Notes: generated from the sequence alone by a model not told the origin. Shown: positions 11,940 through 29,779, numbered from the stretch's first letter. The stretch is 32,000 nucleotides of DNA from Candidatus Omnitrophota bacterium (GCA_963662715.1 OY759724.1:480001-512000), one strand, 5' to 3'. Numbers and translations: made by a program.

Positions 11940-12542
11940 TCAAGGGTTCTTTCTGACCGCTAACAGATTGTTCTCATTGACTTCATAAGCCACCACATAA
12001 TTCTCCGGGACCGCATCACGGGCGTTTTCCTTGTTGAAATAGACGATGCATTCCGGAGGCGTCTGCTCATGCGCCCGCAAGTTCACCTTGGGCAATAAGG
12101 CGTAGGCGATGATACGCAATGCGGTGGAGCCGGGATCCACGGAAGTATCCAGATCCGAGACTAAAACGCCCCGGCACGTCCCGGGGAAATTCCGCAACAA
12201 TTCCCGGGAAAAATTATACGGCCCGCCGAAAAACAAAGATCTCTTTTCATGAGCGCTCAGGGAACGGATCTTGGCATGCTGCATCTGAAAATACAGCATA
12301 TGCCCCAGCGTCTGCAATACAGTTATGATGACGAAAAATGCCGTAACGAGACCGAGGGCTGATTTCTTCGGGTCAAACGGACCGGCGGCCAGCCCCCGGC
12401 CCCGTCTCAGCCCGCAAAAACAACACCCCAGCAAAAACAGCACGCCGATCATGATATAAATTTGAGAATACATCACCGCACTCTCACCGCGGAATCCGTT
12501 GAGAAACGGCTGGGGGTACAAACCTTTTAAAATATCCGACAT
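11940..12542 (-). CDS. Hypothetical membrane-anchored protein (2 TM plus a C-terminal soluble domain of about 100 aa)
   Basis: 200-aa ORF with TM segments IYIMIGVLFLLGCCFCGL and LGLVTAFFVIITVLQTLGHMLYF, translationally coupled to the downstream polytopic protein. I recognise no family signature. Confidence 0.5.
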   Translation of the reverse strand: MSDILKGLYPQPFLNGFRGESAVMYSQIYIMIGVLFLLGCCFCGLRRGRGLAAGPFDPKKSALGLVTAFFVIITVLQTLGHMLYFQMQHAKIRSLSAHEKRSLFFGGPYNFSRELLRNFPGTCRGVLVSDLDTSVDPGSTALRIIAYALLPKVNLRAHEQTPPECIVYFNKENARDAVPENYVVAYEVNENNLLAVRKNP

Positions 12543-14348: not shown

Positions 14349-15125
14349 ATGAATCTTACTAAAGAACTAGAAATATCCCAAACAGCCGCACAGCGGGCCG
14401 CGGAAGCCATTTTAGACATATATCACGGCCGGGCATTTCAAGTCGAGATGAAAGACAATAAAAGCCCGCTGACTTCAGCCGACAAGAAAGCCAATGACAT
14501 TATTGTTAAAACCCTCTCCGAAACCTTCCCGGACTATGCGCTGCTGTCTGAGGAATCCCAAGACGACCGCCGCCGGTTAGCCAATAAATGGTGTTGGATT
14601 GTCGACCCTCTGGACGGCACGAAGGAATTCATAAAAAGAAACGGGGAGTTCACGGTCAATATCGCGCTTTCCTATGAAAACAGGGCCGTGCTCGGGGTGA
14701 TCTATGTCCCGGTGACGCACGAAATGTATTATGCGGTGAAAGGTCAAGGGGCCTATCATGTGAAAAACCATCATGCTTGTAGGATTTATGTTTCCGAGCG
14801 GAAGAAAGACATACGGCTTGTCATGAGCCGGTCACATGCCTCGGAACAGCTGCAGCGTGTTATCGATAAAAACGCGATCACCGATATCAAAAAATCCGGC
14901 AGCTCTTTAAAGGGGTGCCTGGTGGCCCAGGGCGCAGCAGAGATTTATTACCGCTTCAACCCCACGATGGAATGGGATACGGCGGCGATGCAGTGCATTG
15001 CAGAAGAAGCCGGAGGGATTTTCCGGCAATTGGATGACTCCGAAATGTTGTATAACAGGGAAAACAGCTTAAACAGCCGGGGATTCTATGTCCTTAACTG
15101 TGCGGACAACAAACTGGAACTCTGA
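14349..15125 (+). CDS. cysQ: 3'(2'),5'-bisphosphate nucleotidase CysQ (inositol monophosphatase superfamily)
   Basis: LSEES (metal-binding E), WIVDPLDGTKEF (the IMPase DPxDGT motif), and WDTAA near the C-terminus. It is divergent from the cysC-cysD-cysN genes. Confidence 0.85.
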   Translation: MNLTKELEISQTAAQRAAEAILDIYHGRAFQVEMKDNKSPLTSADKKANDIIVKTLSETFPDYALLSEESQDDRRRLANKWCWIVDPLDGTKEFIKRNGEFTVNIALSYENRAVLGVIYVPVTHEMYYAVKGQGAYHVKNHHACRIYVSERKKDIRLVMSRSHASEQLQRVIDKNAITDIKKSGSSLKGCLVAQGAAEIYYRFNPTMEWDTAAMQCIAEEAGGIFRQLDDSEMLYNRENSLNSRGFYVLNCADNKLEL

Positions 15126-15265
15126 ATCTAAGAAATAACATTCCAACCTTTTACTGGGCCCACCTATAGTACCACTACTATAAACGACAATACATTAGTT
15201 AAGATTATTTGCCTTAAGATATCGCGGAAGGTCTCATGAAATGGGTCAAAGAGGATTCTTTTCCG

Positions 15266-17068
15266 TTAAGAAGATAAATTGGTATGAATCAATTCTAATA
15301 TTTTCTCAACCACTTGCTCTCGCGGACTGTGTTCTGCAACATGCAAATCAGCCATCCCGGATGAGGAATCCTCATCCCCCACCCAGACCGTTTTGATCTG
15401 GTCGTCATCAATCGAGGTATGAATGATCTCCAGGTCAGACTTTTGCAGCTCTATCGCCGTTATAATCAGTATTGTCCCCATATTCAACATGATGTTGGCG
15501 ACCTCCGCAAGCCGGCGGAAATGTTCCGGGTGAGTGTCGGGATCATTCGTTAAATCAGCATCCAGACCGTGAATGACGTTACCGATCCCCAAGAAGTAAA
15601 CCAGCTTTCCCTGCATAAAGAGCCTTTCCTCCAAGGCCCGGGCTATTTCTTTGCGAGGGGCATCCCGCCGTCCGGTTATTAAAATCAAAGCGGCTTTCTG
15701 CCCATATCTTTCAAAACGCTGCTCCCGGGAAATATTGCTCATAATCCACCGGTAATTGCGTTCGATGACCATTTGCCTGACCTGGGATTGGGCGTCCTCG
15801 AGCGCCTCATAAATAATCCCGCCGCCGGATATGTTGTTTTGGTCAACAATAACGAATCTGCTGGTCGGGCTTATTCTGTCAGCCAGATCAAAGGCGATGG
15901 CCCGCGGCATTTTCAAAATGCACTTTGCCACCTCGTGGCGGGCAATCTTCTGGGCCGTATCAGTGCTGTCCAGGTTGGACGCGTTGAGGACTTGTTCTAT
16001 TTTTTCAATCTCTACCGGGACTTTCATAGTCCCGAGTTTGAGATGATATGTTTTACCCAGCTCCATGGGAGCCCGTCCCATCCAGAATAAATTAACCTTA
16101 ATTCTGGAGGTGACCTCCGGGGGATGGCCATGAAAAGCGGTTAACATTTCTCCTCTTTTAACATAAATCTGCTCGGTTAACGTCAGTCCAACAGCATAAC
16201 CGGCCCCGATCCCCGGCACAGCAGGCTGGTTAAACATTTCAATGGATTTGACATAGCTCTTCTTGCCGGAGGGATAAAAAACAACTTCATCCCCCACGTT
16301 GACGGTTCCGGTACTGATCGTTCCGCTGATGATACGGCGGTCATCCTGGAACTTCGTGAATTTATAAATATCCTGGACCGGCATCCGCAACGGCAAATTT
16401 TCATCAATATCCTTTTTATGAAATTCATCTAATATTTCAAAGACGGTTTTCCCGAAGTACCAGCTTAAATTCTCCTGCCGTTCGGAAATCATATCTCCCT
16501 CCCGTCCGCTGACGGGGATAAAACATGTCGCCTGAATTCCAATCTTTTCCAAAAATTCCTGATACTGTTGACTGATTTGTCTGAAAACATCCTCCTCATA
16601 GGAAACGAGGTCCATCTTGTTCACGAGGACAGCGACCTGTTTTATTCCCAGCATAGACAGCATGTAGCCGTGTCGGCAGGAATTCTCCTGAACCCCCTCC
16701 TTGGCGTCGATCACTAAAAGGGCCGCTTCGGCCCGCGCAGCCCCGGTGACCATATTCTTCAAGAACTCGATATGTCCCGGAGCATCAATAATGATGTAGT
16801 GGCGTTTGGACGTCTTAAAAAAAACCCTGGCAGAATCTATGGTAATGCCCTGGGCTTGTTCATCCTTTAAAGCGTCTAACAGAAAAGCATACTCGAAGGG
16901 TTTGGAATTATTTTCACATTGCTGACGGACCTGCTCAAGCTTCCCCTGGGGCAGAGAGCCGGTATCTGCCAGCAGGCGGCCCACGATAGTGCTTTTGCCG
17001 TGGTCAACGTGTCCCACAATAACGATATTCATGAATTGAGATGTCATAATATTAAAGAGTTGCCGCAA
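15266..17068 (-). CDS. cysN: Sulfate adenylyltransferase subunit 1 (CysN GTPase) fused to a degenerate APS-kinase-like C-terminal domain
   Basis: GTPase motifs [14 protein letters not shown] and NKMD, followed by EF-Tu-like beta-barrel domains. The last 165 aa or so align to CysC ([10 protein letters not shown] vs RRVGEVANLM), but the catalytic motifs are replaced. It lies directly downstream of cysD. The start is ambiguous: TTG at 17068, ATG at 17047 or ATG at 17032, none with a clear SD. Confidence 0.85.
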
Positions 17069-17129
17069 CTATATATTGATTAACCGAAACAATGTCCTGA
17101 ACAAAACTCGAAAGCCGGCCGGTTCCGCC

Positions 17130-18011
17130 TTACATATAACCTTCTCTTCTCAAGGTTTCCAGCCCCCCGCCGTCATCTTTATCCTGCGCCCGGCCGGAAC
17201 GCTCAGCGATATTGGAAAATTTACCGGTCCTTAATTCTTCGATGATATCATCGACGTTCTTAGCGGTAGATTCCACCGGGAGAGTACAGGGATAACAGCC
17301 GAGAGACCGGTAGCGCGTTCCCTTTCCCTGATCATAATACAGAGAAACGGTCGGAATCCCTTCTTTTTTGATATATTCCCAGATATTCAACTCCGTCCAA
17401 TCCAGCAAAGGATGAATCCTTAAATGTGTGCCTTCAGAAAAATCTGTATTAAACTGATCCCAAAATTCCGGCGGCTGATCGCCAATATCCCAAAGGCTCT
17501 CTTTGTCCCTGGGGGAAAAATACCGCTCTTTGGATCTTGAGCCCTCTTCATCGGAGCGAATGCCGACGATGACCCCGGTGAAGGACTCGGTGCCTGTATA
17601 TTCCTCATAAAGATCCTTGTCATGATTGAAACGGAAACGCGGCCCTGTTCCCTCCAGCGTACTCTTAAGGGCGTCGGTTTTAAGAAGCCGGCAGCAGCGC
17701 AGACGGTCCACTTGTCCGTCCGGAAAAGTTTGTTTTTCTGCCAGAGCCGCCTGATTCTGGCCGTAAAACATATTCAAATGCCATTCCCGGGTGAGCCGGT
17801 CACGATATTCGATCATTTCCGGGATCTTATACGCTGTGTCGATATGCACCAGGGGGATCGGGACGTGCCCGAAAAACGCCTTGCGGGCAAGCCACAACAG
17901 CACAGTACTGTCCTTGCCAATGGACCAGAGCATGCAAAGATTTTTAAAATTCGCATAGGCTTCTCTCAAGATATAAATACTTTTATTTTCGAGTTCTGTT
18001 AAATGGTCCAC
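17130..18011 (-). CDS. cysD: Sulfate adenylyltransferase subunit 2 (CysD, PAPS-reductase/ATP-PPase fold)
   Basis: [15 protein letters not shown]...[20 protein letters not shown] contains the SxGKDS PP-loop. ...[16 protein letters not shown]... and the C-terminal [20 protein letters not shown] are typical of CysD. Confidence 0.9.
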
Positions 18012-18039
18012 ATCCGGTGCCCTCGTTAAAAATACACGC

Positions 18040-18765
18040 CTATATATTCAAATAGCGGTCTATTTGTTTTTTAAGGCAAGAAAATGTTTCTTCTACCGTC
18101 TGCCCCTCGGTCTTGATAACAATTTCAGGGTTCTGCGGTCTTTCATAAGGATCATCGATACCCGTAAAATATTTGATTTCTCCGGCCCGAGCCTTTTTAT
18201 ATAATCCTTTAACATCACGCTGTTCACATATCTCAATCGGCGTGTCGACATGAATCTCCACAAAATTTTGACACAAATCGCGGACAAAATTGCGGGCATC
18301 CTGATAAGGCGAAACAAAGGAAGACACAACAATAACTCCGTTACGTTCAAGCATAGAAGCAAGAAATCCGACCCTCTTGATGTGATTATCCCGTTCTTCT
18401 TTTGTAAAACCGGTCTTAGGGAAGACCGAACGGACGACATCCCCGTCTAAACGCTCCACCCGCAATCCCTTTTCGGCGATATAATCGTAGGCCCGGCTGG
18501 CCAGCGCGCTTTTCCCGGACCCGGATAATCCCGTAAACCAGAGAACAAAAGGTTTGACGCTTTTTTTGCCGAAAGAGATTTTATTCCAGACACGTTCATG
18601 AAAGAAATATAAAATCATCTTTGCAATAATTTCAATGCCTCCCACAGACACGGCCAGGAAAAATCTTTTCGTAAAAAAATAAACAATGGTGCACGTCGTA
18701 ATCGTTGCCCAAATACGCCAGGAAATGGTCTTTAATATCGACCGGCTTCTTTTTTCAATATACAT
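18040..18765 (-). CDS. cysC: Adenylyl-sulfate (APS) kinase CysC with an N-terminal DUF2061-like two-TM membrane domain
   Basis: The kinase part has an intact P-loop [22 protein letters not shown] and [21 protein letters not shown]. The N-terminal 65 aa or so, [22 protein letters not shown]...[20 protein letters not shown], match the SWR...HERxW signature I recall for DUF2061. Confidence 0.85.
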
Positions 18766-19974: not shown

Positions 19975-20391
19975 TTAAACTTTCTGACAGCTGTCGCAAA
20001 TCCCGTCTAACTGCAGAAAATGGTCAACAATCCTGAAGCCATTGACACTTCTCTTGCGAAAAAGATCGCATCCCGCAATCTCTCCGACTTTGCCGCACCG
20101 GATACAGACAATATGATGATGGTGGACCCCGCCTTCAGCATGGCACAGGCCGTAATAACGGTTATTGTCAAACTTATGTATGCGGGTCAAAATCCCATAC
20201 TCTGTTAAAGACTCAAGATTCCGGTAAACGCCCGGCAGGCCGCACTGCCGAAATTTCCGGCGGAGTTTTTCATATACTTTCTCCGGAGTCAAAAACTTAT
20301 TGTTTTTATAAAAGATTTCGATAATAGCGATTCTTTTGGGAGTGCTTTTTAAAGGACAACTTTGAAGTTTTTCAAGATATCTGTCCAGCAT
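19975..20391 (-). CDS. Fur-family metalloregulator (Fur/Zur/PerR type)
   Basis: Winged-helix N-terminus (TPKRIAIIEIFYKN...LTPEKVYEKL), then HHHHIVCIRCGKVGEI (HHxHxxCxxCG) and a C-terminal CDSC. These are the hallmark Fur structural and regulatory metal sites. Confidence 0.85.
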   Translation of the reverse strand: MLDRYLEKLQSCPLKSTPKRIAIIEIFYKNNKFLTPEKVYEKLRRKFRQCGLPGVYRNLESLTEYGILTRIHKFDNNRYYGLCHAEGGVHHHHIVCIRCGKVGEIAGCDLFRKRSVNGFRIVDHFLQLDGICDSCQKV

Positions 20392-20425
20392 AGGACGGCC
20401 ATCCGAATAGAATTTTTTTTTATTT

Positions 20426-20453
20426 ATTATAAACCGAATCGGAGACCTGTCAA
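20426..20453 (-). promoter_or_regulatory. Sigma70-type promoter for the Fur-family gene (TTGACA-N16-TATAAT on the minus strand)
   Basis: Read directly. On the minus strand, TTGACA is at 20453-20448, followed by a 16-nt spacer and TATAAT at 20431-20426, about 35 nt upstream of the ATG at 20391. Confidence 0.5.
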
Positions 20454-20495: not shown

Positions 20496-21353
20496 TTAAG
20501 GAGTAATTAATTTTAAAGATTTAGGCAGAATCTTAATGTGAACAGACTTATACCTCAAAATCTCCCCGTCGCTTTGAAAATGCTGCTTCGGATCGGATGT
20601 GATTTCGATTTCCCGGACCTGCCAGTGCCTCAGGAAGCCACGAAAAATATTCTTTCTTCCTTCAAAAATATTTTTTAAATCCGTATGATTGATAATAATA
20701 ACGTCCAGCAACCCGTCATCGACCTGAATTTTAGATGATATGGAGATTCCCGGCAAACCCAAATTTCCGCTATTGGCGACAATGCACGCCAGGCCTCTTT
20801 CCTCGTACTCCTTCCCATCTAATGTTAACTGATACAGAGACGGAGTGGTTTTTAACGCCGCTTTTAAACTGTTCAGCGCATAGGCCAGCCACCCGATCCT
20901 GGTCTTGATATCCGGTTTTGTCTCTCTGACAACTTCGGCCTCAAAACCGCTGCTCACTCTTATCAAAAAATACTTGTGCCCCATCTGTCCCACATCAATC
21001 TCCCGGATACGATGCTGGCCCAGGCACAAATTAACCGCTTTCTCAACATCCTGGGCTATTCTTAATTCATTGGAGATCACGTTAGCCGTGCCGCCCGGGA
21101 GAATAAGCAACGGGGTTTTTCCGCCAATCAAGGCTCCAGCGGCTTCCTGGACCGTTCCGTCCCCGCCGTAAATAACGATCACATCCGCGTTTTCAGCAAC
21201 CGAAAGCTTCACAAACCGGGAAACATCCTCTTTGTTTTTAGTGACGTGCACGTCCCAGGACACCTTCTGGCGGGACAACACTTTATTTAAAGTGTAAAGG
21301 ACCGGGTATTTCATGCCCGATGAGGGATTTATGATAATGCTTAACCGTTTCAT
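20496..21353 (-). CDS. DAGK-catalytic-domain lipid kinase (YegS/BmrU/DgkB/sphingosine-kinase fold), copy 2
   Basis: LSIIINPSSG, VIVIYGGDGTVQEAAGAL (GGDGT motif) and LLILPGGTANVISNEL (GT.N motif). 285 aa. Confidence 0.8.
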   Translation of the reverse strand: MKRLSIIINPSSGMKYPVLYTLNKVLSRQKVSWDVHVTKNKEDVSRFVKLSVAENADVIVIYGGDGTVQEAAGALIGGKTPLLILPGGTANVISNELRIAQDVEKAVNLCLGQHRIREIDVGQMGHKYFLIRVSSGFEAEVVRETKPDIKTRIGWLAYALNSLKAALKTTPSLYQLTLDGKEYEERGLACIVANSGNLGLPGISISSKIQVDDGLLDVIIINHTDLKNIFEGRKNIFRGFLRHWQVREIEITSDPKQHFQSDGEILRYKSVHIKILPKSLKLITP

Positions 21354-21475: not shown

Positions 21476-21868
21476 TCAGGCCCGCAGACTCTTATAGGAA
21501 ATAAAAAAGATAATCATAAAAATCAGATCAAAGAATGCAAACGGGACCCAAATCCAGGGCATTTGACCTGCCAGCCAGTGCGGGAATACGACTAAGCAGT
21601 AGGAGAGCTTAATCAGGACAGCATAAATGATAAGACTCCTGTTGGCAAGGGGGTCCCTGGCGATATTAAAAAGCATATAGGCGAAAATGACCAAAATGCA
21701 GGCCGGGAACTGGACATACCCGATATGATTGGGCGGGGGGATCTGTACGGCATGAAAAATGGCCAGCGGCGCAATAAGAAAAGCGGCTCCGAGAATACCG
21801 TCATAAAACGCTGCCACGATATAAAAGGGTTTGATCCATTTAGGGATATTCATATTTTCCTCTTTCAT
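21476..21868 (-). CDS. Small 4-TM membrane protein of unknown function, within the lipid operon
   Basis: 130-aa ORF with four hydrophobic helices, lying between the UbiA-family gene and the second lipid kinase on the same strand. An alternative start at Met6 (21853) has AGAGGA upstream. Confidence 0.55.
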   Translation of the reverse strand: MKEENMNIPKWIKPFYIVAAFYDGILGAAFLIAPLAIFHAVQIPPPNHIGYVQFPACILVIFAYMLFNIARDPLANRSLIIYAVLIKLSYCLVVFPHWLAGQMPWIWVPFAFFDLIFMIIFFISYKSLRA

Positions 21869-21903: not shown

Positions 21904-22875
21904 CTAAGCCAAAGCATCTTTATGAAAATCAAATAACCAGCCAATAAGGACAAAATTGATCAGGTAAAGCATCCCGGAAAGAAACGGATGCAGCAAAGCT
22001 ATAAAACCGGTCTCATAGAGTACCGCGCCCCTGAATGTCCATTTCAGCGAGTAATATGTCTTTTCACCGTGTGCGTTCCGAAAAAACAACACGGCCGTGT
22101 ACTGCATGATCAGAAAAGTCAATACCATCAATCCCGTAAAAAAGGGATTAATACAGCCTTTCCAGGGATCGAAAAAGAACATGAAAACAACAATCCCGAA
22201 GGGAAGGCTGCTCATCATAACGTTCAGATATTTTGCTTTTCCGGGAGACAACTTGACAACAATCGTTTTGATCCCGGCCGCCTTATCCCCCTGATAATCT
22301 TTAAAATACGTATAAAAAGCGACTGCCACATTCATGAGAATCACGCCTAAAGCCAGGACAGCTAACTGAGCATCCGCCATAATTTCCAGCCCTTTTCCGT
22401 TCAAACACATGGCACCGTAATAAAGACACGGCGCAACAAGACAGCCAAAAACAATATTCCCCAGGATAAGAATTCTTTTGGAATATTCATAAACGATATT
22501 GAGGAGAAAAACGAGCACATACAGGGTTAAAGCATATGGATTTAATAGAAGCGTTATTCCGGCCCCCAATACAAATAATCCCGCGCTTATACCCACAGCC
22601 GAACCGACCGGAAGTCGTCCCGTGACAAGCGGCCGGCGGGGCGCATTGATTCTGTCTTCTTTAAGTCCCAACAGATCATTGATGACCTGGTTGACGCCCC
22701 ACCCCACAAAAACGACGGTCAAAACAAGCGCCGTTCTAAAAGGAGTGATCTCTGCCCCGCAGAATGCTATCCCCAGGCACCCTGTCATGCCGGAGATAAA
22801 AAACAAATACGGACGCATGGATTTTATATAATTTAAAATAACACTCCTGGAAAATATCATACTAGACCTTTTCAA
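21904..22875 (-). CDS. UbiA-superfamily prenyltransferase, DGGGP-synthase/chlorophyll-synthase-like subgroup
   Basis: First motif NDLLGLKEDRINAPRRPLVTGRL (compare NDxxDxxxDxxNxPxRPxxSG). Second motif FKDYQGDKAAGIKTIVV (DxxxDxxxGxxT). About 8-9 TM helices. The start overlaps the upstream fusion gene by 14 nt. Confidence 0.85.
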   Translation of the reverse strand: MKRSSMIFSRSVILNYIKSMRPYLFFISGMTGCLGIAFCGAEITPFRTALVLTVVFVGWGVNQVINDLLGLKEDRINAPRRPLVTGRLPVGSAVGISAGLFVLGAGITLLLNPYALTLYVLVFLLNIVYEYSKRILILGNIVFGCLVAPCLYYGAMCLNGKGLEIMADAQLAVLALGVILMNVAVAFYTYFKDYQGDKAAGIKTIVVKLSPGKAKYLNVMMSSLPFGIVVFMFFFDPWKGCINPFFTGLMVLTFLIMQYTAVLFFRNAHGEKTYYSLKWTFRGAVLYETGFIALLHPFLSGMLYLINFVLIGWLFDFHKDALA

Positions 22876-25225
22876 TCAGACGCATTTTTTTATACAGGGG
22901 GACCTCTTCCTTGTTTTGAAACTGCTCCATAAGCTGCAGCGCATCCTCACCCGTTACTGGGAATGCCGTAATCTTCTTCTCTTCTATATACCGGCGTATC
23001 CTGCCATGCTCGGAATTACACAGCCAACTTAGACACGGCTTCTTAAAATGTGCCCTCATACGGTCAAAAATCACAGAAAAAGGCTCCTCTTGAACATTGC
23101 CGCAGGAAACATTTAAAAATTCACAGGGCTGAATTTCTCCGTGAGCGTTCACATAAAAACGCTCGATTCCCCCGGCCGTGCATCCGAAGGCCTCGGGGGA
23201 AGATTCAAAAACCTGCATGGAAAGCGACGGGAAATCCCGAAGCTCCCTGGCCTTGTTCAAACGCCAGTGATCGGCGCAAAGACGGGCGATCAGCTCCCGA
23301 TCCATTAAAGTGTTCCCCCTCCGGAGCCATCCCCCGGCAGGTTTTTCATGAATAACCTGCACAAAACTGCAGCCTAGTTCCCTGCCAAGCTGCAATATCT
23401 TTTTTATGCCGTCATCCATTATCATCTCCCGGGAAGGACAGCAATTGATGACAGCCGTAACACCTGTATCTGCAAATATGCGGATCGCCTTGCAGGCGAT
23501 CCGAAAAGCTCCTTCAAAGCCCACAAACTCATCGTGCTTTTCAGCCTCCCAATGATGCAGGGAGACCATCACTCCGAAAAGTCCGGCCTGCCGGAGACGC
23601 CAGGCCTTTTCATAAGTTAATGTGTGCCCCGTGGTGTTCACCCAGACTTCCCTCTCAGAGTCCAGAGACCCGATGAGTTTTAGCAAACGTTCATATTTTA
23701 ATAAAGGTTCGCCGCCTTCGATATCAAACATACTTATACCGGCATGCTGAATATCACGGGCGAGCCGCAAGAGATCGGCTTCCGGCAGGTCTTCACCGGC
23801 GTCACGTTTTTGATAGCAGTGCCGGCAGTGATACCCGCAGGCTTTTGTCATGGAAAAAACAACTGTTGTCGGATAGGTTGCATCATCGGTGATCAAAAAT
23901 TTATCGATGGCTTTATAAAAAGCCCTGCTTGGAAAAGCCGGAAGATACAAATGTATTTTATAGACATTATTTATTTTTACGGCCTTGTTATACCCGAGGA
24001 CTTTCGAGAGGAGAAGCATTCTTTTAACGAAAAAAGCATACTGTTTCAAGGTTATCGCCCCCTTCAACAAACGGACGAAATACCGCAAAAAAATTGTCAG
24101 GCCCATTGTCACATCTAATAATATGCGGCCGAAACCGACAACAAACTGCTGTTGCAAGGGCCTCTGTCTGTCATAGGGGATTGGCAGGAAACCATTCTGC
24201 CGCCACCAGCGGACTGTTTCTGCGACACCCTGCTCCAGGGACACCGTCTGTTTAAAACCCAAAACATCCCCGGCTCTGGCCGTAGCATAAACATTATGAC
24301 AATAAAACATCTTGACCCGGGCCCGGGTCAAAAGAAAAGGTTCTTTGGCTCCCAGGAGCTTCGCCATAAGTTCCAAAAACACGGCTGAAGGATAAAAGAC
24401 CCACAAAGGGAGATATACCGGCGGTCTTATCCCTAAATTCCGGCAATATAAATTAAAATATTCCCGGATGTTCGGGGCCCGGTCATTACCCATGTTAAAA
24501 ACATGAACCCCGGATAAATCCTTTTCCAAGGCGAGCAGCATGCCCCGGACCAGATCTTTCACATGAATAACGTGAAATCTATTGGTGCGTCCCATCGGCA
24601 TGACCCGCATCCCCTGCAAGACAGCGCGGCAGAATTCATACGGCCCCGAATGAAACTCCCTGGGGCCATAAACCCAGACCGGACGTATCACGACCAAATT
24701 CAAATCACCTTCCCCGGCTATGCCAACGGCTTCCTGCTCCGCCAGCATTTTCGTTTCGCGGTAATAATTCATATCTGACGGAAAAATAGCCGACAGAAAA
24801 TATGGCATGTCCGGCCGGTAAGGGGCTTCTTCCGGCTTGGGCTTTTCTTCATCCTCTTCACCCAAAACAGCAATGCTGCTTACCAAAACAACCTTTTTCA
24901 CTCTTTGCTCCTTGGCCGCACGAACAACATTGCGGGTCCCCTGAACATTGATTTCATGAAAGTCTTTCTTCCGGCCCCAGTCAGAAGCCAAAGCGGCCAC
25001 ATGAAAAACGGCGTCACAGCCGCTCATCGCTTCCGTCACTCCGGCAGAGTCCCTAATATCCCCATAGCAAATTTTGATCTTGTCTACCGGGAGAAACCGC
25101 AGATCACTGCCCGGACGCAGCAGAACCGTCACCTCATATTGACCGGCCACTAAACGGTCCACCAGATGACTGCCGATAAACCCCGAAGCCCCGGTCACAA
25201 AGACTTTCCGTATTCCGCTGTTCAT
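22862..25225 (-). CDS. Fusion protein: N-terminal NAD(P)-dependent extended SDR (epimerase/dehydratase/3beta-HSD-like reductase), hydrophobic linker, C-terminal radical SAM domain with a Cys-rich SPASM/twitch-like extension
   Basis: SDR part: VFVTGASGFIGSHL (residues 8-21) and YRETK (Y155/K159, the YxxxK motif). Radical SAM part: CGYHCRHC = Cx3Cx2C (C463/C467/C470, encoded at 23816-23839), plus DIEGGEPLL. C-terminal part: FGCTAGG...GEIQPCEFLNVSCGNV...PCLSWLC. 787 aa with no internal stop. Confidence 0.85.
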   Translation of the reverse strand: MNSGIRKVFVTGASGFIGSHLVDRLVAGQYEVTVLLRPGSDLRFLPVDKIKICYGDIRDSAGVTEAMSGCDAVFHVAALASDWGRKKDFHEINVQGTRNVVRAAKEQRVKKVVLVSSIAVLGEEDEEKPKPEEAPYRPDMPYFLSAIFPSDMNYYRETKMLAEQEAVGIAGEGDLNLVVIRPVWVYGPREFHSGPYEFCRAVLQGMRVMPMGRTNRFHVIHVKDLVRGMLLALEKDLSGVHVFNMGNDRAPNIREYFNLYCRNLGIRPPVYLPLWVFYPSAVFLELMAKLLGAKEPFLLTRARVKMFYCHNVYATARAGDVLGFKQTVSLEQGVAETVRWWRQNGFLPIPYDRQRPLQQQFVVGFGRILLDVTMGLTIFLRYFVRLLKGAITLKQYAFFVKRMLLLSKVLGYNKAVKINNVYKIHLYLPAFPSRAFYKAIDKFLITDDATYPTTVVFSMTKACGYHCRHCYQKRDAGEDLPEADLLRLARDIQHAGISMFDIEGGEPLLKYERLLKLIGSLDSEREVWVNTTGHTLTYEKAWRLRQAGLFGVMVSLHHWEAEKHDEFVGFEGAFRIACKAIRIFADTGVTAVINCCPSREMIMDDGIKKILQLGRELGCSFVQVIHEKPAGGWLRRGNTLMDRELIARLCADHWRLNKARELRDFPSLSMQVFESSPEAFGCTAGGIERFYVNAHGEIQPCEFLNVSCGNVQEEPFSVIFDRMRAHFKKPCLSWLCNSEHGRIRRYIEEKKITAFPVTGEDALQLMEQFQNKEEVPLYKKMRLIEKV

Positions 25226-26151
25226 GAGACAATCACCTCTAAACTCTTTGGCAGCACCTCAATGGTTGCCGGGAGTTTCCCCCTCATGTCACCGTCGAAT
25301 TCAATAAAGACGTCCTCCCGCTCCGAACAAACTTCAACCTTTCGGCCATAACGCATGCCCGCATGTTTGTACTCCATGAAATCACCGACATACAGTTTAG
25401 GGACGTTCGCAAGCAATGAAAACAAGCTGCCTTTTCTTAATGAGAACAAAAAAAGCTTCCCGTCATCAGGAAGCACATCACTAAAGACTCTCATCCCGGA
25501 AGCCAGATACGGATCTTTACCGACGGTTAAATTGATTAAAGATGTGAAGTCCGTCTTTTCTCCGTCTATTTTCACTTTCAAATCAACACCCTGAAAATTC
25601 CAGACAGCTGTTAAGGAAGACACCAGCGTCCCCAGAAAATCCCCCAGGTATTTTCTATAACGTGAATTGGCCTTACCGGCGATATGCGGCCCAAGCCCCA
25701 CGTTGACGCTGCTGCCGAAATAAAACACTCTTTCGTCTCCGGCCAGGTCCCGGAAAGAGACTTTGCCCACATCAACGCTCCGGGTTCTGCCGGCCAACAA
25801 GGCTTCAAGGGCCTCATCAAGGCGGACAGGGATATGACAATACCGGTTAAAGTCAGGACTTGTTCCGACGTGCAGTACGCCCAATGTCCTGGACGCGGCC
25901 GGGCTGTTCTGCCGCAGGCCCGTTATCACTTCACAGATCGTGCCGTCACCTCCGACAGCCACCACCACATCATAATCCCTTTCCCCGGCCTGCCGTGATA
26001 TATCGACGGCTTCATCCTTTCTCGAAGTCATCTGATAATCAAAATCAACCTTCCGGAGCTTCATTTCGGAAATAATCCGCCGGCACTGTTTATACGCACC
26101 GCCTGATCTGGCCGTCGGGTTCATAACCAAAAAATACTTCAACGGAGCCAT
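25222..26151 (-). CDS. DAGK-catalytic-domain lipid kinase (sphingosine/ceramide/diacylglycerol kinase fold), copy 1
   Basis: FLVMNPTARSG, VVVAVGGDGTICEVITGL (GGDGT) and LGVLHVGTSPDFNRY (GT..DF). It overlaps the upstream AOS gene by 13 nt and the downstream fusion gene by 4 nt (ATGA). Confidence 0.8.
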   Translation of the reverse strand: MAPLKYFLVMNPTARSGGAYKQCRRIISEMKLRKVDFDYQMTSRKDEAVDISRQAGERDYDVVVAVGGDGTICEVITGLRQNSPAASRTLGVLHVGTSPDFNRYCHIPVRLDEALEALLAGRTRSVDVGKVSFRDLAGDERVFYFGSSVNVGLGPHIAGKANSRYRKYLGDFLGTLVSSLTAVWNFQGVDLKVKIDGEKTDFTSLINLTVGKDPYLASGMRVFSDVLPDDGKLFLFSLRKGSLFSLLANVPKLYVGDFMEYKHAGMRYGRKVEVCSEREDVFIEFDGDMRGKLPATIEVLPKSLEVIVS

Positions 26152-27329
26152 TCCGGCTTCTCCTGCTTTATCTCCTCAAACGCTGAAATCGTTTTATCGA
26201 TGTCCTCATCTTCCAGCAGGGCGTTCACCGTTAAACGGATCCGCGCCGTGTTCTTGGCGACGCTCGGAGGGATGAACGGGACGCCATAAATGCCCCGCTC
26301 GGAAAGCATTTTGGCAGCCAGGAACGTGTTTTCGCTGGTCTTAAACACAACCGACACCAGCGGGGTCGTTGAGCCGGTCAGGTTGAATCTCATCTGATCC
26401 AGGGCCTCATACAGCTTCCTGGCGAGCCGCATGATTTTTTCTCTTAGCCGGGGGTGATCTTCCACGTAGCGCAAAGAAGCGATGGTCGCTCCGGCCATAA
26501 CAGGCGGCAATGCGGTTGAATAAAAATACATCGGGGCCTTATAACGGAAGCCGTCAATAATATCGGCCTTGCCGGCGATAAACCCGCCAAACGTCCCGAC
26601 AGCCTTGCCGAAAGACCCGGTCATCAAATCCACATCCTGATAAGTGTCCGTCAGTTCAAGAATTCCCCGGCCTTCCCGCCCCAAGACCCCCAACCCGTGG
26701 GCATCATCAACGATCACAAAAGCGTCGTGCCTGCGGGCAACATCCGTGAGTTCTTTAAGCGGAGGGGTGTCTCCGTTGGTGCTGTAAAGCCCTTCCAGGA
26801 CAATAAACTTGACGCGATAATGACAACACCGCAAGAGGGTCTTCTCAAGTTTGTTCATATCATTATGCGGGAAAATCTTAAACGCCGCTTTCGATAAGGC
26901 CACACCGTTTAACAGGGATGAATGAATCTCTTTGTCGGCAATAATAACATCGTTCTCCCCGGCCATGAGCTGAAACAGGCTCATATTGGCCTGATAACAG
27001 GAAGGAAAGACCAAAGCATCTTCCTGTTTAAGAAAACGGGCCGTAGCCAGTTCCAGTTCCCGGTTGACAGCGGACTGTCCGACGACAATAGGGGTCCCGC
27101 ACAAACTCAAACCGAAAGTCTCTAAAATCTTCGTCGCCTCCTTCTTGATGACGGCATTATTAGCGATGCCCAGATAATCATTTGTTCCTAAAGAAACCAT
27201 TTTTCTGCCGTTAACGGTAATTTCCCGGGCCAGCCCGCTCTGAACGATCTGATAATAGGCGTTGAAGTTTATATCGTCTGCCAGCTTTTTATCAATGTAC
27301 AAGCTATCAATTAATTCTTTTTTGGACAT
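26139..27329 (-). CDS. PLP-dependent alpha-oxoamine synthase family enzyme (serine palmitoyltransferase / BioF / Kbl / cysteate-acyltransferase family)
   Basis: GTNDYLGI, DKEIHSSLL (the PLP-stacking His), VDDAHGLGVLG, and GSFGKAVG (the Schiff-base Lys). I placed the start at 27329 (MSKKELI...) because GAGGAG lies 6 nt upstream. The 41-codon extension in the ORF track has no homology-like features. Confidence 0.85.
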   Translation of the reverse strand: MSKKELIDSLYIDKKLADDINFNAYYQIVQSGLAREITVNGRKMVSLGTNDYLGIANNAVIKKEATKILETFGLSLCGTPIVVGQSAVNRELELATARFLKQEDALVFPSCYQANMSLFQLMAGENDVIIADKEIHSSLLNGVALSKAAFKIFPHNDMNKLEKTLLRCCHYRVKFIVLEGLYSTNGDTPPLKELTDVARRHDAFVIVDDAHGLGVLGREGRGILELTDTYQDVDLMTGSFGKAVGTFGGFIAGKADIIDGFRYKAPMYFYSTALPPVMAGATIASLRYVEDHPRLREKIMRLARKLYEALDQMRFNLTGSTTPLVSVVFKTSENTFLAAKMLSERGIYGVPFIPPSVAKNTARIRLTVNALLEDEDIDKTISAFEEIKQEKPEWLR

Positions 27330-27518
27330 ACGCGTCTCCTCATGTTGTTTAACCCTGCCCTTAACTTGTTCACGTGCTGCTTTTCCGCCCCCTCTTATTC
27401 CAAAATGTGTTTCCCCCGGACAAAAGGCATGCCCTGATGACAAGAATCCCATTTCCTGGCGTCTGGCTTACCGTGGGTGGCCGGCGTGAGGTGTGAAAAT
27501 AATTTTGTCTACACAAAA

Positions 27519-27547
27519 AGTTTACCACTCAATTATTTATCTGTCAA
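27519..27547 (-). promoter_or_regulatory. Candidate sigma70 promoter for the lipid operon (TTGACA-N17-TAAACT, minus strand)
   Basis: Read directly. On the minus strand, TTGACA is at 27547-27542, followed by a 17-nt spacer and TAAACT at 27524-27519. This would give a leader of about 180 nt before the ATG at 27329. The -10 element is imperfect. Confidence 0.3.
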
Positions 27548-27718: not shown

Positions 27719-28042
27719 TTATTTAACGACATCATCCGCGGGCACAGTGAACATAACCCCCATGCCATCTTCTTCAAAATTAATTTTTTCTTCTTTAAGA
27801 ATGGCATAGAAATCTTTCAGGACATTTTCGTCTTCTATTAAAGCAAAAATCGTTTTGTTATGTTGCTTCTCCTGTCCGACAATTTTACGCAATCCCGCAA
27901 AAATAGGGACATCGTAAGCCAAGGCATGCGCCATGCCTTCAGAATCAATAATCGTCGCTCCGGTGATTCCGAGTTCAGCCATAATAGAAATAATGTCGTT
28001 CAGGAACTCCTCTTTATTAAGGACGATAAACAATAATTTCAT
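27719..28042 (-). CDS. PII-like (GlnB/DarA-fold) small signal-transduction protein
   Basis: 107 aa. MKLLFIVLNKEEFLNDIISIMAELGITGATIIDSEGM reproduces the beta-alpha-beta start of PII-family proteins (compare MKLVTAIIKP..L..V..AL...GI.G.TV..V.G.G). It starts 39 nt downstream of the CPA2 antiporter gene. Confidence 0.55.
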   Translation of the reverse strand: MKLLFIVLNKEEFLNDIISIMAELGITGATIIDSEGMAHALAYDVPIFAGLRKIVGQEKQHNKTIFALIEDENVLKDFYAILKEEKINFEEDGMGVMFTVPADDVVK

Positions 28043-28081
28043 ATATTCCTCCTAACCAATTTAATACACAAATGTGTGTTT

Positions 28082-29299
28082 TCAGGTACGGCGGCGATAA
28101 TTCATCAATTTCCCGACTTCGCCGGCTTTTTCTATTGCAATTTTAGTTGTCATCGGGCCAATGATTTCAAAAATAATAGTCGTGGCGGCAATCGTATTGA
28201 TAACCAAGGTCGCCACAGCTTCCCCCTCCGGCCCCAAAGCGGAGAATTCTTTTACCGTGATCAGGGCCAGACCGATAGCGACGCCTGCCTGAGATAAAAT
28301 ACCCAGGCCCAAATAATTCCTCACATTTTTATCAGCACGGCTGACTGTCGCCCCGAAGTAAGCCCCTCCGATAAGCCCCACGGTCCTGCCTATAATATAC
28401 AAAATTCCCAGAAGCCCCATGGACGGGAGCAGGTTAAGGTGTAAATGGGCGCCGGCCAGCACAAAAAAGAGCACAAAGATCGGTGCCGTAAGCCCTTCAA
28501 TGACATTGGCGGCCCTTCGGGATGCATGCAAGGATATGTTCGTAAGGACCAGCCCCACCATAAGATTAGTTAAAATGAGAGACAAGTGATATGCATTGCT
28601 TAACCCTGCACACAAAAAAATGGCCCCTAGCGTTATAACCAGAGTTTCGTTCTTTGAACGGACATGCCTCAAGACAAAAGCCAGCACCGCTCCTACCCCT
28701 GCACCTAATATCAACGATTCCACTATTTCGGCCACCGGTCCGACAAGAAACGATTCTGCCGTCATCATCTGAGCGCCCGTTATCATATTTTTGGCTAAAG
28801 CGGCGGCAAGACCGTAAATAATGATGGCCAATCCATCGTCCAGACCAACCACAGAAAGCAGGGTACTGGTTAAAGGGCCCTTGGCCTTATACTCCTGCAA
28901 AACGGCGACAGTACCCGCAGGAGCGCTGGCCGGCGCCATGGCTCCGAATATTAAGGCCAGATAACCTTTATGGGTCAAGAAATACACTAAAGCAGCTACA
29001 CAAAAAAAAGCAAAAAAAGACTCGGCAAAAATAATAGTGGCCAAACCCGCGCCCTGCCTTCTCAACACTCCCGCGCGCATCTCACTGCCGATAGTGAACG
29101 CGACTATGGCTAAGGCGATATCACTGATAATGCCCATACTGTCAACCAGATGGTCAGTGAATATCCCCAGGAAGGAAGGCCCTAATATCAGTCCGATAAG
29201 AATGTACCCCACGACCCCGGGGAATTTGAACCGGCCGACAATTTTACTGCCGGCGTAGCCCAGGATGAGGGCCAAGCCCATCAAAAATAAGATTTCCAT
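28082..29299 (-). CDS. Monovalent cation:proton antiporter, CPA2/Kef-type (Na_H_Exchanger domain only, no RCK/KTN domain)
   Basis: MEILFLMGLALILGYAGSKIVGRFKFPGVVGYILIGLILGPSFLG is the classic CPA N-terminus. 405 aa with about 12-13 TM helices, ending right after the membrane domain. Confidence 0.85.
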   Translation of the reverse strand: MEILFLMGLALILGYAGSKIVGRFKFPGVVGYILIGLILGPSFLGIFTDHLVDSMGIISDIALAIVAFTIGSEMRAGVLRRQGAGLATIIFAESFFAFFCVAALVYFLTHKGYLALIFGAMAPASAPAGTVAVLQEYKAKGPLTSTLLSVVGLDDGLAIIIYGLAAALAKNMITGAQMMTAESFLVGPVAEIVESLILGAGVGAVLAFVLRHVRSKNETLVITLGAIFLCAGLSNAYHLSLILTNLMVGLVLTNISLHASRRAANVIEGLTAPIFVLFFVLAGAHLHLNLLPSMGLLGILYIIGRTVGLIGGAYFGATVSRADKNVRNYLGLGILSQAGVAIGLALITVKEFSALGPEGEAVATLVINTIAATTIIFEIIGPMTTKIAIEKAGEVGKLMNYRRRT

Positions 29300-29317
29300 A
29301 ATAGTATCCTTACTATT

Positions 29318-29779
29318 CTAAACAGGTTCTTCAATCCTGTTAAAAGCTTTAATAATATCTTCCGCGCTGCTTGCACCAATGAGTGTGCCACGGAACTCTT
29401 CCTTTTTTAATATCCGCGTCAAATAGGCCAAGGCTTTCAAATATGTCCCCATATCTTTCTTCGGCGTCCCCAGCAGAAAGATCAGTTTAACGGGCTGATG
29501 ATCAATCGCGTCAAAATCAATACCCCGGCCAGACTTTCCAAAAGCAATGACAAGATTGTTTACGGCTTCTGTCCTGGCATGAGGCACGGCAATCTGATGT
29601 CCGATACCCGTTGTCATGGCGGCTTCCCGCTCAAAAACCTCTTGTAAAAACTGGTCAAAATCCTGGACTTCAGGAGAACCCTTCAGCAAGTCCGCCAATT
29701 CCCTGATCGCCTCTTCTTTGGTCGTTGCCTGTAAATCTGAGCAGATAAAATCTGCTTTTAAGTATTTAGATATTTCCAT
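29318..29779 (-). CDS. ptsN: PTS EIIA type-2 domain protein (PtsN / EIIA-Ntr-like regulator)
   Basis: 153 aa. The phosphorylatable His motif is TGIGHQIAVPHART; later VKLIFLLGTPK. AAAGGAG lies upstream of the ATG. It is the first gene of the antiporter operon. Confidence 0.75.
   Translation of the reverse strand: MEISKYLKADFICSDLQATTKEEAIRELADLLKGSPEVQDFDQFLQEVFEREAAMTTGIGHQIAVPHARTEAVNNLVIAFGKSGRGIDFDAIDHQPVKLIFLLGTPKKDMGTYLKALAYLTRILKKEEFRGTLIGASSAEDIIKAFNRIEEPV

Follow-up and report, generated by a model that had tools for sequence, protein, structure and literature searches.

We have found that a ketoreductase-type extended SDR and a radical SAM enzyme are carried on one polypeptide in a Candidatus Omnitrophota bacterium, as a genuine bifunctional fusion of two enzymes. 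Both domains retain all of their catalytic signatures, and the fusion links two steps of a widespread five-gene cassette whose other members are of lipid-biosynthetic type and whose product is probably an unusual amino-alcohol/isoprenoid lipid. The fusion is direct genetic evidence that the extended SDR and an unassigned radical SAM family share one pathway. On balance, we favor a reading in which the cassette makes an amino-lipid, with the SDR domain reducing a 3-keto-amine and the radical SAM domain modifying the same lipid.

The window analysed is a stretch of 32,000 nucleotides (GCA_963662715.1, OY759724.1:480001-512000), and its features are listed in Table 1. An earlier note on this DNA had described a single uninterrupted 787-aa reading frame, and this was borne out; the note's entry for the ORF carried no strand. 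The motifs quoted in it were all found at the residues given, namely TGASGFIGSH (11-20) and Y155-x3-K159 in the SDR half, C463-x3-C467-x2-C470 and GGEPLL (504-509) in the radical SAM half, and the C-terminal Cys regions GCTAGG (681-686), QPCEF (699-703), SCGN (707-710) and PCLSWLC (730-736). The identical 787-aa protein also occurs in public collections, on a 3.36-Mb contig. No characterised enzyme with an SDR-radical SAM fusion was found in the PDB, NCBIfam or the literature searched, in keeping with the note, which named none, and the architecture proved to be rare and without functional assignment rather than common and already assigned. An Rfam scan of the whole window gave no matches.

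Table 1. Features of the window (positions counted from its first nucleotide; residues are those of the 787-aa protein)
Feature	Position (nt)	Strand	Remarks
Sigma-70-like promoter match, TTGACA-17-TAAACT with extended TG	27519..27547	minus	Upstream of alpha-oxoamine synthase; consensus match only
Alpha-oxoamine synthase (AOS), PLP-dependent, Spt/Kbl/BioF-like	26139..27452	minus	Cassette gene 1
YegS/DgkB-type lipid kinase, GGDGT motif	25222..26151	minus	Nearest DgkB/YegS
Whole fusion ORF	22862..25225	minus	787 aa plus stop; ATG start, no internal stops
Extended SDR domain, residues 1-347	24185..25225	minus	Pfam Epimerase and 3Beta_HSD
Flexible connector, residues 348-360 (PIPYDRQRPLQQQ)	24146..24184	minus	Junction comparison
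Radical SAM N-terminal module, residues 361-450	23876..24145	minus	In all stand-alone homologues
Radical SAM core, residues 451-660	23246..23875	minus	Pfam Radical_SAM and Fer4_12; C463/C467/C470, GGE 504-506
Twitch-like auxiliary-cluster domain, residues 661-787	22865..23245	minus	C682-x13-G696-x4-C701 and C736
UbiA-superfamily prenyltransferase, DGGGP-synthase-like	21904..22875	minus	Signature NDxxGxxED
130-aa polytopic membrane protein, no Pfam family	21476..21868	minus	Fifth cassette gene, fused (Omnitrophota-type) clade

The earlier note's reading of the polypeptide as an intact extended SDR together with a radical SAM enzyme bearing an auxiliary-cluster domain was supported. In the SDR half, Pfam Epimerase (PF01370) matched residues 8-246 well above threshold (E = 7.9e-40; 137.2 bits, gathering cut-off 20.9), and the TGASGFIG element (11-18), S116, Y155 and K159 do not vary across 49 partner SDRs. 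R37 is located after beta2, at a position that is R or H. A low-confidence insert at residues ~121-150 is probably a substrate lid. Stand-alone SDRs terminate at WW(K/R)xNG(Y/F)L, which corresponds to residue 347 of the fusion. The fold is that of a generic extended SDR, equally near NDP-sugar epimerases and dehydratases, and its nearest solved folds are GalE, RmlB and DesIV (~25% identity). The best NCBIfam matches were HpnA, OleD and SdmB, all under cut-off (HpnA, TIGR03466, 174.2 against 367.65; OleD, NF042422/NF042423, 137.2 and 108.2 against 580). At the family level, the best matches were HpnA, OleD and 3beta-HSD/NSDHL, which act on lipids as keto-reductases or dehydrogenases and in some cases have a hydrophobic C-terminal lobe, although the SDR stays under their curated cut-offs and hopanoid or olefin genes are absent nearby.

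The two halves had been described as joined by a hydrophobic linker. This is wrong, because the segment in question (FVVGFGRILLDVTMGLTIFLRYFV, residues 361-384) is part of the radical SAM module, forming the conserved N-terminus that all stand-alone radical SAM homologues (~430 aa long) also have. The real connector is only ~13 residues (PIPYDRQRPLQQQ) and sits where two-gene forms have a stop codon and an intergenic stretch or overlap; it is variable in length and sequence, with pLDDT <50 at residues 351-353. The N-terminal module comprises two long hydrophobic/amphipathic helices (364-387 and 393-410), which were modelled confidently, and a small beta unit, with G364, R402, K414, Y427 and P429 at least 95% conserved. 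A clear transmembrane linker was considered and downgraded to a borderline hydrophobic/amphipathic module, given that the hydropathy peak of the whole protein, which lies here, reaches a maximum Kyte-Doolittle 19-residue mean of 1.77 and that the hydrophobic segment includes R367 and D371 and is followed by amphipathic helices. The module is likely a membrane-association or substrate-entry element.

Pfam Radical_SAM (PF04055) matched residues 458-592 above threshold (E = 2.1e-14; 54.4 bits, gathering cut-off 29.5), and Foldseek matches to the core were radical SAM enzymes. Six Cys are invariant among 95 radical SAM homologues, three of them in the core (C463, C467 and C470) and exactly three C-terminal (C682, C701 and C736); GGE 504-506 is at least 95% conserved in the same set. 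Of five C-terminal Cys singled out as extra by the earlier note, C682, C701 and C736 hold, but C708 (Cys in 4% of members) and C731 (27%) are not conserved. For the auxiliary-cluster domain the earlier note's 'SPASM-like' label is an overstatement, and a full SPASM assignment is ruled out by the Cys conservation together with a sub-threshold score (PF13186, 19.5 bits against 21.5); of the seven-Cys pattern of two-cluster SPASM domains, the CX2CX5CX3C motif is absent from the C-terminal domain. A CX9-15GX4C element follows the core and, with C736, supplies the three invariant Cys. Since only these three are invariant, the domain fits, as judged from sequence, the single-cluster twitch type.

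Of known enzymes, BtrN, MoaA, SkfB and BlsE resemble the radical SAM half in having a CX3CX2C core followed by a C-terminal CX9-15GX4C, and SkfB, BlsE and MoaA are its nearest matches in both sequence and fold (structural matches with TM ~0.5 and identity of 18% or less). The substrate-binding auxiliary cluster of MoaA resembles the three fixed Cys ligands of the present domain. Some structural neighbours act on nucleotides or nucleotide-sugars. What sets the present family apart from these enzymes is its lipid-type gene context and an N-terminal module, unique to it, in which ~90 residues include hydrophobic helices. The best NCBIfam matches of the radical SAM half were AhbD/NirJ/NirJ2 of heme b and heme d1 synthesis (E ~1e-24), yet their scores (86.0 and 85.3 bits) are far from the cut-off of 500, and neither a second auxiliary-cluster motif nor a tetrapyrrole context accompanies them.

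A substrate tunnel shared by the two domains, which the earlier note had proposed to look for with AlphaFold, gained no support from the full-length AF2 model, which contains no confident inter-domain interface. Because the pTM, at 0.90 when the C-terminal half was modelled by itself, was only 0.63 for the full-length protein, and the connector fell below pLDDT 50, we propose from the model that the fusion would serve as a flexible tether of a soluble reductase to a membrane-associated radical enzyme rather than as a rigid shared active site.

The radical SAM family comprises at least 624 sequence clusters, with relatives in 146 species genomes, and about 3% of it is fused. The fused architecture was represented by 19 full-length protein clusters of 47-61% identity in NCBI, ENA, JGI and Logan assemblies; one cluster (P0008) was found on nine contigs from NCBI, ENA and Logan, and another (P0007) on 11. 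In a rough neighbour-joining tree of the family, midpoint-rooted and without support values, the fused forms make up one clade that is sister to adjacent-gene lineages. Close relatives carry two adjacent or overlapping genes that one base change would fuse, as would be expected if a sequencing or assembly error had erased a stop codon or frameshift between them. However, the same fusion recurs across independent assemblies in divergent clusters, all fused forms fall in one coherent clade, and the connector is variable in both sequence and length, as an evolved linker would be, so that an artefact, which the earlier note had asked to have checked, is effectively excluded and we regard it as extremely improbable. 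Multiple independent fusions were rejected on the grounds that all true fusions form one clade and that the 864-aa ORF of locus L080 is a high-GC read-through artefact, its real SDR and radical SAM genes overlapping in different frames. The fused ORFs called at L036, L044 and L047 are probably artefacts of the same kind.

In ~70 other species loci the SDR and radical SAM genes are separate yet clustered, always with the same partners, which strongly supports the earlier suggestion that both chemistries belong to the same pathway. The two genes are adjacent or overlapping in 16-17 loci (16 by script plus L080 by inspection), with gaps of 6-126 nt or overlaps of 14 or 28 nt, and lie several genes apart in most others. 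The fusion arose when two genes of this conserved cassette, lying next to each other and coupled in translation, were joined. In a set of 80 species loci, the radical SAM gene co-localises with the kinase in 68, UbiA in 56 and AOS in 50, and with an SDR wherever the contig allows; radical SAM (76 loci) and UbiA are core cassette members. Carriers of the family include Omnitrophota, the PVC superphylum, Riflebacteria, Elusimicrobia, Armatimonadota and Acidobacteriota, among others, and are uncultured and apparently mostly anaerobic bacteria; the family is distributed very broadly, in a pattern across phyla that looks vertical. No description of the cassette was found in the literature searched, and we know of no cultured carrier or lipid product.

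The cassette genes in the window overlap one another, by 13 nt (AOS/kinase), 4 nt (kinase/fusion) and 14 nt (fusion stop/UbiA). AOS probably starts at Met42 (nt 27329), its relatives being 395-396 aa long. Its best PDB match is the Sphingobacterium SPT (7e-63), whereas it scored only 288, 266 and 219 bits on the NCBIfam SPT models (cut-offs 500, 640 and 670) and higher, at 331, on BioF (TIGR00858; cut-off 426); all NCBIfam equivalogs were under cut-off. UbiA has archaeal DGGGP synthase as its best PDB (6m31, 3.7e-14) and NCBIfam relative, but its scores of 78.9 and 73.6 bits are far lower than the cut-offs of 353 and 296, and GGGPS and G1PDH are absent from the cassette. Its donor or acceptor may be unusual, since its first Asp-rich motif (NDLLGLKED, its first G shared by all 44 matched relatives) departs from the canonical NDxxDxxxD. 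The 130-aa membrane protein was found in 12 loci, and in L005, L015 and L019 it adjoins the radical SAM gene without the SDR or other genes. Extended cassettes carry an ACP gene directly upstream of AOS (as at L034 and L073), along with KAS, a PKS-type dehydratase and an MMPL exporter, and in some loci a MarR-type regulator lies ahead of the cassette. The PVC-type cassette also has AIRS-like and OYE genes; a search of the window found neither. No cassette component scores as high as the curated cut-off for a characterised family, so all substrates are assigned from context.

The cassette runs from the alpha-oxoamine synthase through the GGDG lipid kinase, the extended SDR, radical SAM and UbiA to the small membrane protein. 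In the pathway that we favor, the synthase would join acyl-ACP or acyl-CoA to an amino acid, giving a long-chain 3-keto-amine whose ketone the SDR domain (NADPH-type; Ser116/Tyr155/Lys159) would turn into an amino-alcohol, as happens in sphingolipid synthesis at the 3-ketosphinganine or CerR step. The kinase would then phosphorylate this product, and the DGGGPS-like UbiA would add an isoprenoid chain, a role in keeping with DGGGP synthase, which attaches a prenyl chain to phospholipids that have a single chain. Held at the membrane via its N-terminal helices, and carrying the SAM cluster and one auxiliary Fe-S cluster on three fixed Cys, the radical SAM domain would finally abstract hydrogen from the same amino-lipid for an oxygen-independent modification. 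By analogy with twitch/SPASM dehydrogenases, our best guess is a two-electron oxidation or desaturation; an AhbD/BlsE-like decarboxylation or C-C bond formation may be alternatives. The lipid-type neighbours make a membrane-embedded substrate of both domains, as earlier supposed, plausible. No conserved ceramide synthase, GGPP synthase or CDP-alcohol transferase was found in the cassette.

Canonical bacterial ceramide synthesis would make AOS an Spt, the SDR a CerR/KDS reductase, the kinase a ceramide or sphingoid-base kinase, and radical SAM and UbiA accessory decorators. In Caulobacter, spt, cerR and a GGDG ceramide kinase (Spt, CerR, CpgB) are clustered much as the cassette clusters its PLP alpha-oxoamine synthase, NAD(P)-dependent reductase and GGDG kinase, and P. 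gingivalis has a dihydrosphingosine kinase (PMC10331486, PMC11324152). The SPT match of AOS and the ACP adjoining the synthase in some loci (L034 and L073) add to the likeness. A bacterial CerR would be recognised by orthology to Caulobacter CC_1164 and by clustering with spt, acpR and aasR, with cerS in the genome. We nevertheless consider this pathway unlikely: AOS fails all three SPT equivalogs and scores higher on BioF, an N-acyltransferase (CerS-like) gene is not among the conserved families, radical SAM and UbiA are core rather than occasional (76 and 56 loci), and Omnitrophota, PVC, Riflebacteria and Elusimicrobia were not tied to sphingolipid production in the literature searched. A diffusible small molecule, such as a CqsA/LqsA-type alpha-amino- or alpha-hydroxy-ketone signal that is reduced, phosphorylated, prenylated and radical-modified, would agree with the match of AOS to the alpha-hydroxyketone autoinducer synthase model (1.9e-63) and with the MarR-type regulator. 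It too has a low probability, as the MMPL exporter, ACP/KAS, polytopic UbiA and membrane-associating radical SAM N-terminus fit a hydrophobic product and the distribution is so broad and vertical-looking.

The nearest solved folds of the SDR (GalE, RmlB, DesIV), the matches of the radical SAM half to BlsE, DesII, MoaA and viperin, and weak NCBIfam matches of UbiA to decaprenyl-phosphate phosphoribosyltransferase could instead indicate a nucleotide-sugar or polyprenyl-phosphate-sugar pathway. The SDR would then be an NDP-sugar 4-epimerase, dehydratase or ketoreductase, the radical SAM enzyme a BlsE/DesII-like decarboxylase or deaminase acting on the same sugar, and UbiA, working like that phosphoribosyltransferase, the enzyme joining the product to polyprenyl phosphate. 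This is improbable in our view: glycosyltransferase, nucleotidyltransferase and sugar aminotransferase genes are not conserved in the cassette, whereas an Spt/BioF-type AOS and a GGDG lipid kinase are; extended versions carry ACP, KAS, PKS dehydratase and MMPL; and R/H37 after beta2 and the HpnA/OleD/SdmB matches indicate a lipid-type NADPH reductase. We also dropped an interpretation in terms of tetrapyrroles, with AOS taken for ALAS, radical SAM for an AhbD-like enzyme and UbiA for one like heme O/chlorophyll synthase; all scores are far under cut-offs and no other tetrapyrrole genes are conserved. A threonine/aminoacetone reading (Kbl with a GalE-like TDH) was likewise set aside, as it does not suit a context of ACP, KAS, MMPL, UbiA and lipid kinase.

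In the cassette, a DGGGPS-like prenyltransferase accompanies head-group chemistry of the sphingolipid type. Bacterial DGGGPS homologues without an assigned role are a recurrent puzzle of the lipid divide (PMC6431249), and the cassette context suggests a concrete role for one subfamily of them. More tentatively, and with some doubt, the product could be a new class of membrane lipid, in which a sphingoid-like amino-alcohol phosphate made by the Spt-like synthase, SDR domain and kinase would receive, in place of the N-acyl chain, an isoprenoid second tail from the archaeal-type DGGGPS-like UbiA, and would be modified without oxygen by the membrane-associated radical SAM domain, through a reaction such as anaerobic desaturation or the cross-linking of chains. 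If true, this would be a third route to a two-tailed membrane lipid, combining 'bacterial sphingolipid' and 'archaeal ether lipid' logic across more than 12 mostly uncultured phyla, with the fusion protein as a Rosetta stone for its steps. The compact five-gene version in the window is a handy unit for heterologous expression and lipidomics. In public annotation, fused proteins are named 'NAD-dependent epimerase/dehydratase' and split ones 'radical SAM protein', which hides the link between them.

The fusion is encoded by a single ORF on the minus strand; the ORF is uninterrupted, as the earlier note had claimed, and the motifs and residue numbers listed there are all right. Pfam placed Epimerase (extended SDR) at residues 8-246 (E=7.9e-40) and Radical_SAM at residues 458-592 (E=2.1e-14), with the SPASM model sub-threshold (19.5 bits versus a gathering score of 21.5). 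Neither half was assigned to a curated family in NCBIfam. The closest models were HpnA (174 bits versus a cut-off of 368), OleD-type reductases and SdmB for the SDR half, and AhbD and NirJ2 (~86 bits versus a cut-off of 500) for the radical SAM half. Searching 5.8 billion protein clusters recovered an identical protein on a 3.36-Mb contig, as well as 18 more full-length clusters with the same domain order (761-805 aa, 47-61% identity). The fused clusters come from NCBI, ENA, JGI and Logan assemblies, and one of them, P0008, was found on nine separately assembled contigs. Because of these 18 further clusters and the P0008 contigs, an assembly artefact was ruled out as the source of the architecture as such; the lost stop codon that had been raised as a possible cause fails at the same level, given that the domain order recurs in separate assemblies. 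Public names of the fused proteins cover only the epimerase/dehydratase half.

Catalytic signatures of the SDR half were compared across 49 SDR partners drawn from all three gene arrangements (fused, adjacent and split). TGxxGFIG, S116, Y155 and K159 show little or no variation, and the residue following β2 is Arg or His in all 49. In SDRs, Arg or His at this position points to NADP(H) and a reductase over an NAD⁺-retaining epimerase; its constancy therefore favours an NADP(H) reductase role for this half. Among 95 radical SAM homologues, exactly six Cys are invariant: C463, C467 and C470, plus C682, C701 and C736. Of the extra Cys previously proposed to hold an auxiliary cluster, the latter three thus stand and C708 (Cys in 4%) and C731 (27%) do not, and the candidates for a fourth ligand vary: position 737 is Cys in 57% and Asn in the window protein, and position 619 is Cys in 85%. 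C682-x13-G696-x4-C701 forms a CX9-15GX4C element, which opens SPASM and twitch domains. The CX2CX5CX3C motif that marks two-cluster SPASM is not present in the radical SAM half, so that the "SPASM-like" label, with the HMM also sub-threshold, goes too far. This half is best described as a predicted twitch-type enzyme in which three fixed Cys would hold a single auxiliary cluster. Its nearest PDB enzymes by sequence and fold are SkfB, SuiB, BlsE, MoaA, PqqE, DesII and viperin, at ≤18% identity and a TM of ~0.5, and it is too far from characterised enzymes for a reaction to be transferred.

Stand-alone SDRs terminate at WW(K/R)xNG(Y/F)L, corresponding to residue 347 of the window protein, and stand-alone radical SAM proteins start near residue 355-361. 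The true connector is therefore PIPYDRQRPLQQQ, a segment whose length and sequence differ between fused relatives and whose pLDDT is <50 in the full-length model. The "hydrophobic linker" (361-384) of the earlier note is instead the first of two long helices (364-387 and 393-410) within a conserved ~90-residue N-terminal module of the radical SAM protein. This module holds the protein's most hydrophobic 19-residue window (Kyte-Doolittle mean 1.77); the hydrophobic segment includes R367 and D371 and is followed by an amphipathic helix. We read the module as a probable monotopic or in-plane element for membrane association or substrate entry, and not as an established transmembrane helix. AlphaFold modelled residues 346-787 confidently (pLDDT 89.3, pTM 0.90). 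Since pTM fell to 0.63 for the full-length protein despite good local confidence (pLDDT 84.4), the two catalytic modules are predicted to behave as beads on a flexible tether, and a fixed substrate tunnel shared by both, which the earlier note had raised as a question for modelling, has no support in this model.

Relatives turned up in 146 species when one genome of each species was scanned, and junctions were read in the loci of the best 80. Within these, a single ORF is limited to about five species loci (L009, L010, L011, L018 and kin), and the SDR and radical SAM genes are adjacent in 16 loci detected by script and in L080 by inspection, separated by 6-126 nt or overlapping by 14 or 28 nt in another frame. 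Three or four cassette genes lie between them in most PVC-type, Armatimonadota, Elusimicrobia and Acidobacteriota loci. In a rough neighbour-joining tree of radical SAM halves (midpoint-rooted, without support values), true fusions all fall in one clade whose sister lineages carry adjacent genes; a single fusion of an already coupled gene pair would suffice to explain this tree. A small Omnitrophota subgroup nested within the fused clade has since lost the SDR half. The radical SAM half used alone as a query matched at least 624 clusters at E≤1e-30. Because nearly all of these are stand-alone (~430 aa, with the generic name "radical SAM protein"), the fused state is ~3% of the family; SDR was the sole fusion partner seen in this search, and no cultured carrier was found among its named sequences.

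The 28-nt overlap is shared by the members of one lineage, L017, L021, L022 and L023 (e.g. L017 9002..9029), in which its sequence, GATGGTGGAGGAGG(A/T)ATGG, is conserved. It is unusually long for a conserved overlap and might be a sign of tight translational coupling or a step toward fusion. In some other Omnitrophota (L005 8001..9759; L015; L019), AOS, kinase, SDR and UbiA were not found within 8 kb of a stand-alone radical SAM gene, which adjoins PIG-L deacetylase and GNAT genes and keeps only a 125-aa membrane-protein neighbour. That the small membrane protein stays where the partners are absent suggests that it and the radical SAM enzyme are a functional pair.

In the window, the fusion takes third place in a compact unit of minus-strand genes, with overlaps of 13, 4 and 14 nt and one 35-nt gap.

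Coordinates of the cassette and of other features in the window
Feature	Position	Strand	Remark
Promoter-like site	27547-27519	minus	ahead of AOS
α-Oxoamine synthase (AOS)	26139..27452	minus	start probably Met42
YegS/DgkB-type lipid kinase	25222..26151	minus	GGDGT
Fusion ORF	22862..25225	minus	787 codons, no interruption
UbiA prenyltransferase	21904..22875	minus	downstream of fusion
130-aa membrane protein	21476..21868	minus	no family
Second YegS/DgkB-type lipid kinase (KIN2)	20496..21353	minus	285 aa, GGDGT
Fur-family regulator	19975..20453 (region)	minus	138 aa
Sigma-70 consensus match	20453-20426		12/12, TTGACA-16-TATAAT, upstream of Fur-family gene
Sigma-70 consensus match	19036-19009		perfect
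APS kinase, N-terminal DUF2061 membrane domain	18040..18765	minus	PAPS block
CysD	17130..18011	minus	PAPS block
CysN-CysC-like GTPase/APS-kinase fusion	15266..17068	minus	PAPS block
CysQ-like inositol-monophosphatase-family gene	14349..15125	plus	PAPS block
MMPL-family transporter	5146..7383	plus	745 aa

The nearest characterised relative of the AOS is bacterial serine palmitoyltransferase (8guh, 7e-63), which leads Kbl and BioF only narrowly, the protein falling below all NCBIfam cut-offs. That of the kinase is DgkB, and that of UbiA is M. jannaschii DGGGP synthase (6m31, 3.7e-14). The first Asp-rich motif of this UbiA subfamily is NDxxGxxED in 44 of 44 motif-matched members, in place of canonical NDxxDxxxD. 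The replacement of the central Asp by Gly, seen in the window and in the L009-L088 genes, suggests altered diphosphate/Mg binding or an unusual donor.

In relatives of the fusion at 58% and 49% identity, the five-gene order of the window is kept and the outer neighbours differ. The conserved set was defined by tblastn of window proteins against all loci and by de novo ORF clustering. It comprises radical SAM (76 loci), kinase (68), UbiA (56), AOS (50), an AIRS-fold protein (40), an OYE-type flavoprotein (35), KAS (13), the small membrane protein (12), MMPL (6) and ACP (5), many absences reflecting only short contigs. ACP is immediately upstream of AOS in Bdellovibrionota-type loci, and in Riflebacteria the cassette is extended by KAS and ACP as well as by a PKS-type dehydratase and an MMPL exporter. 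PVC-type cassettes carry two extra conserved genes between kinase and AOS (L007/L008 10210..12434 and ~40 other split-type loci), encoding an AIRS-fold (PurM/ThiL/HypE-like) ATP enzyme and an OYE-type FMN oxidoreductase, both absent from the window's clade; FixC/FixX-like ETF-QO genes adjoin UbiA in L007. Cassette contigs were also binned as Woesearchaeota, Nanoarchaeota, Pacearchaeota, Thermoplasmatota and Saccharibacteria MAGs (L020, L024, L062; P0092, P0118, P0156), reflecting either mis-binning or inter-domain transfer.

Taken together, recurrent clustering, adjacency and fusion make the classical case for one pathway shared by the SDR, the radical SAM enzyme, AOS, kinase and UbiA, and they strongly support the earlier proposal insofar as it has the two chemistries serve one pathway. 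All substrates were assigned from homology below family cut-offs and from gene context. In the most economical chemistry, AOS would condense an acyl-ACP or acyl-CoA with an amino acid to a long-chain 3-keto-amine, the SDR would reduce this to an amino-alcohol, the kinase would phosphorylate it, and the DGGGPS-like UbiA would add an isoprenoid chain to the product, a single-chain phospholipid analogue. The spt, cerR and ceramide-kinase genes are clustered in Caulobacter, and P. gingivalis has a dihydrosphingosine kinase (PMC10331486, PMC11324152); the AOS, SDR and kinase steps mirror both, although a prenyltransferase, and not a ceramide synthase, is among the conserved genes here. The main rival is a nucleotide-sugar pathway, the setting in which enzymes with this SDR fold and several structural neighbours of the radical SAM domain work; however, the cassette partners are lipid-type, and no glycosyltransferase or nucleotidyltransferase is conserved in the cassette.

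Of the steps in the proposed lipid pathway, the radical SAM reaction has the fewest constraints. A two-electron oxidation or a desaturation that acts on the amino-lipid without oxygen would be favoured by the single-auxiliary-cluster architecture, the lack of B12 or methylase features in the enzyme, and the carrier lineages, which we take from general knowledge of their phyla to be mostly anaerobic; taken by itself, this assignment is unlikely to be correct. AhbD/BlsE-like decarboxylation and C-C bond formation are alternatives.

The fusion is a combination of two known superfamilies, and neither it nor the cassette is described in the literature found by full-text search. DGGGPS-like UbiA homologues of unknown role in bacteria have been noted in the lipid-divide literature in another context (PMC6431249). 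The cassette may encode something more novel than the fusion itself, a hybrid sphingoid-isoprenoid lipid, which we put forward tentatively and regard as somewhat doubtful.

KIN2, downstream of the cassette and 122 nt from its last gene, shares only 22% identity with the cassette kinase; no second copy was seen in related loci, where KIN2 matches are the cassette kinase again. Downstream of the cassette, a complete sulfate-activation/PAPS block (14349..18765), on the same strand except for the CysQ-like gene, hints at sulfation of some product, and it is not conserved alongside the cassette in other genomes. The MMPL-family transporter, 15 kb away, is weakly similar (22% over 272 aa) to cassette-embedded MMPL exporters of Riflebacteria and Bdellovibrionota. 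ORFs at 237..845, 10568..11938 and 11940..12542 (-) (202, 456 and 200 aa) matched no Pfam family at E≤1e-3 to 1e-4. A P-II-like protein (107 aa, weak P-II match) is encoded directly downstream of Na+/H+ exchanger-family and PTS EIIA(Ntr/Fru)-type genes (27719..29779, minus strand), and the three might act together to regulate cation transport.
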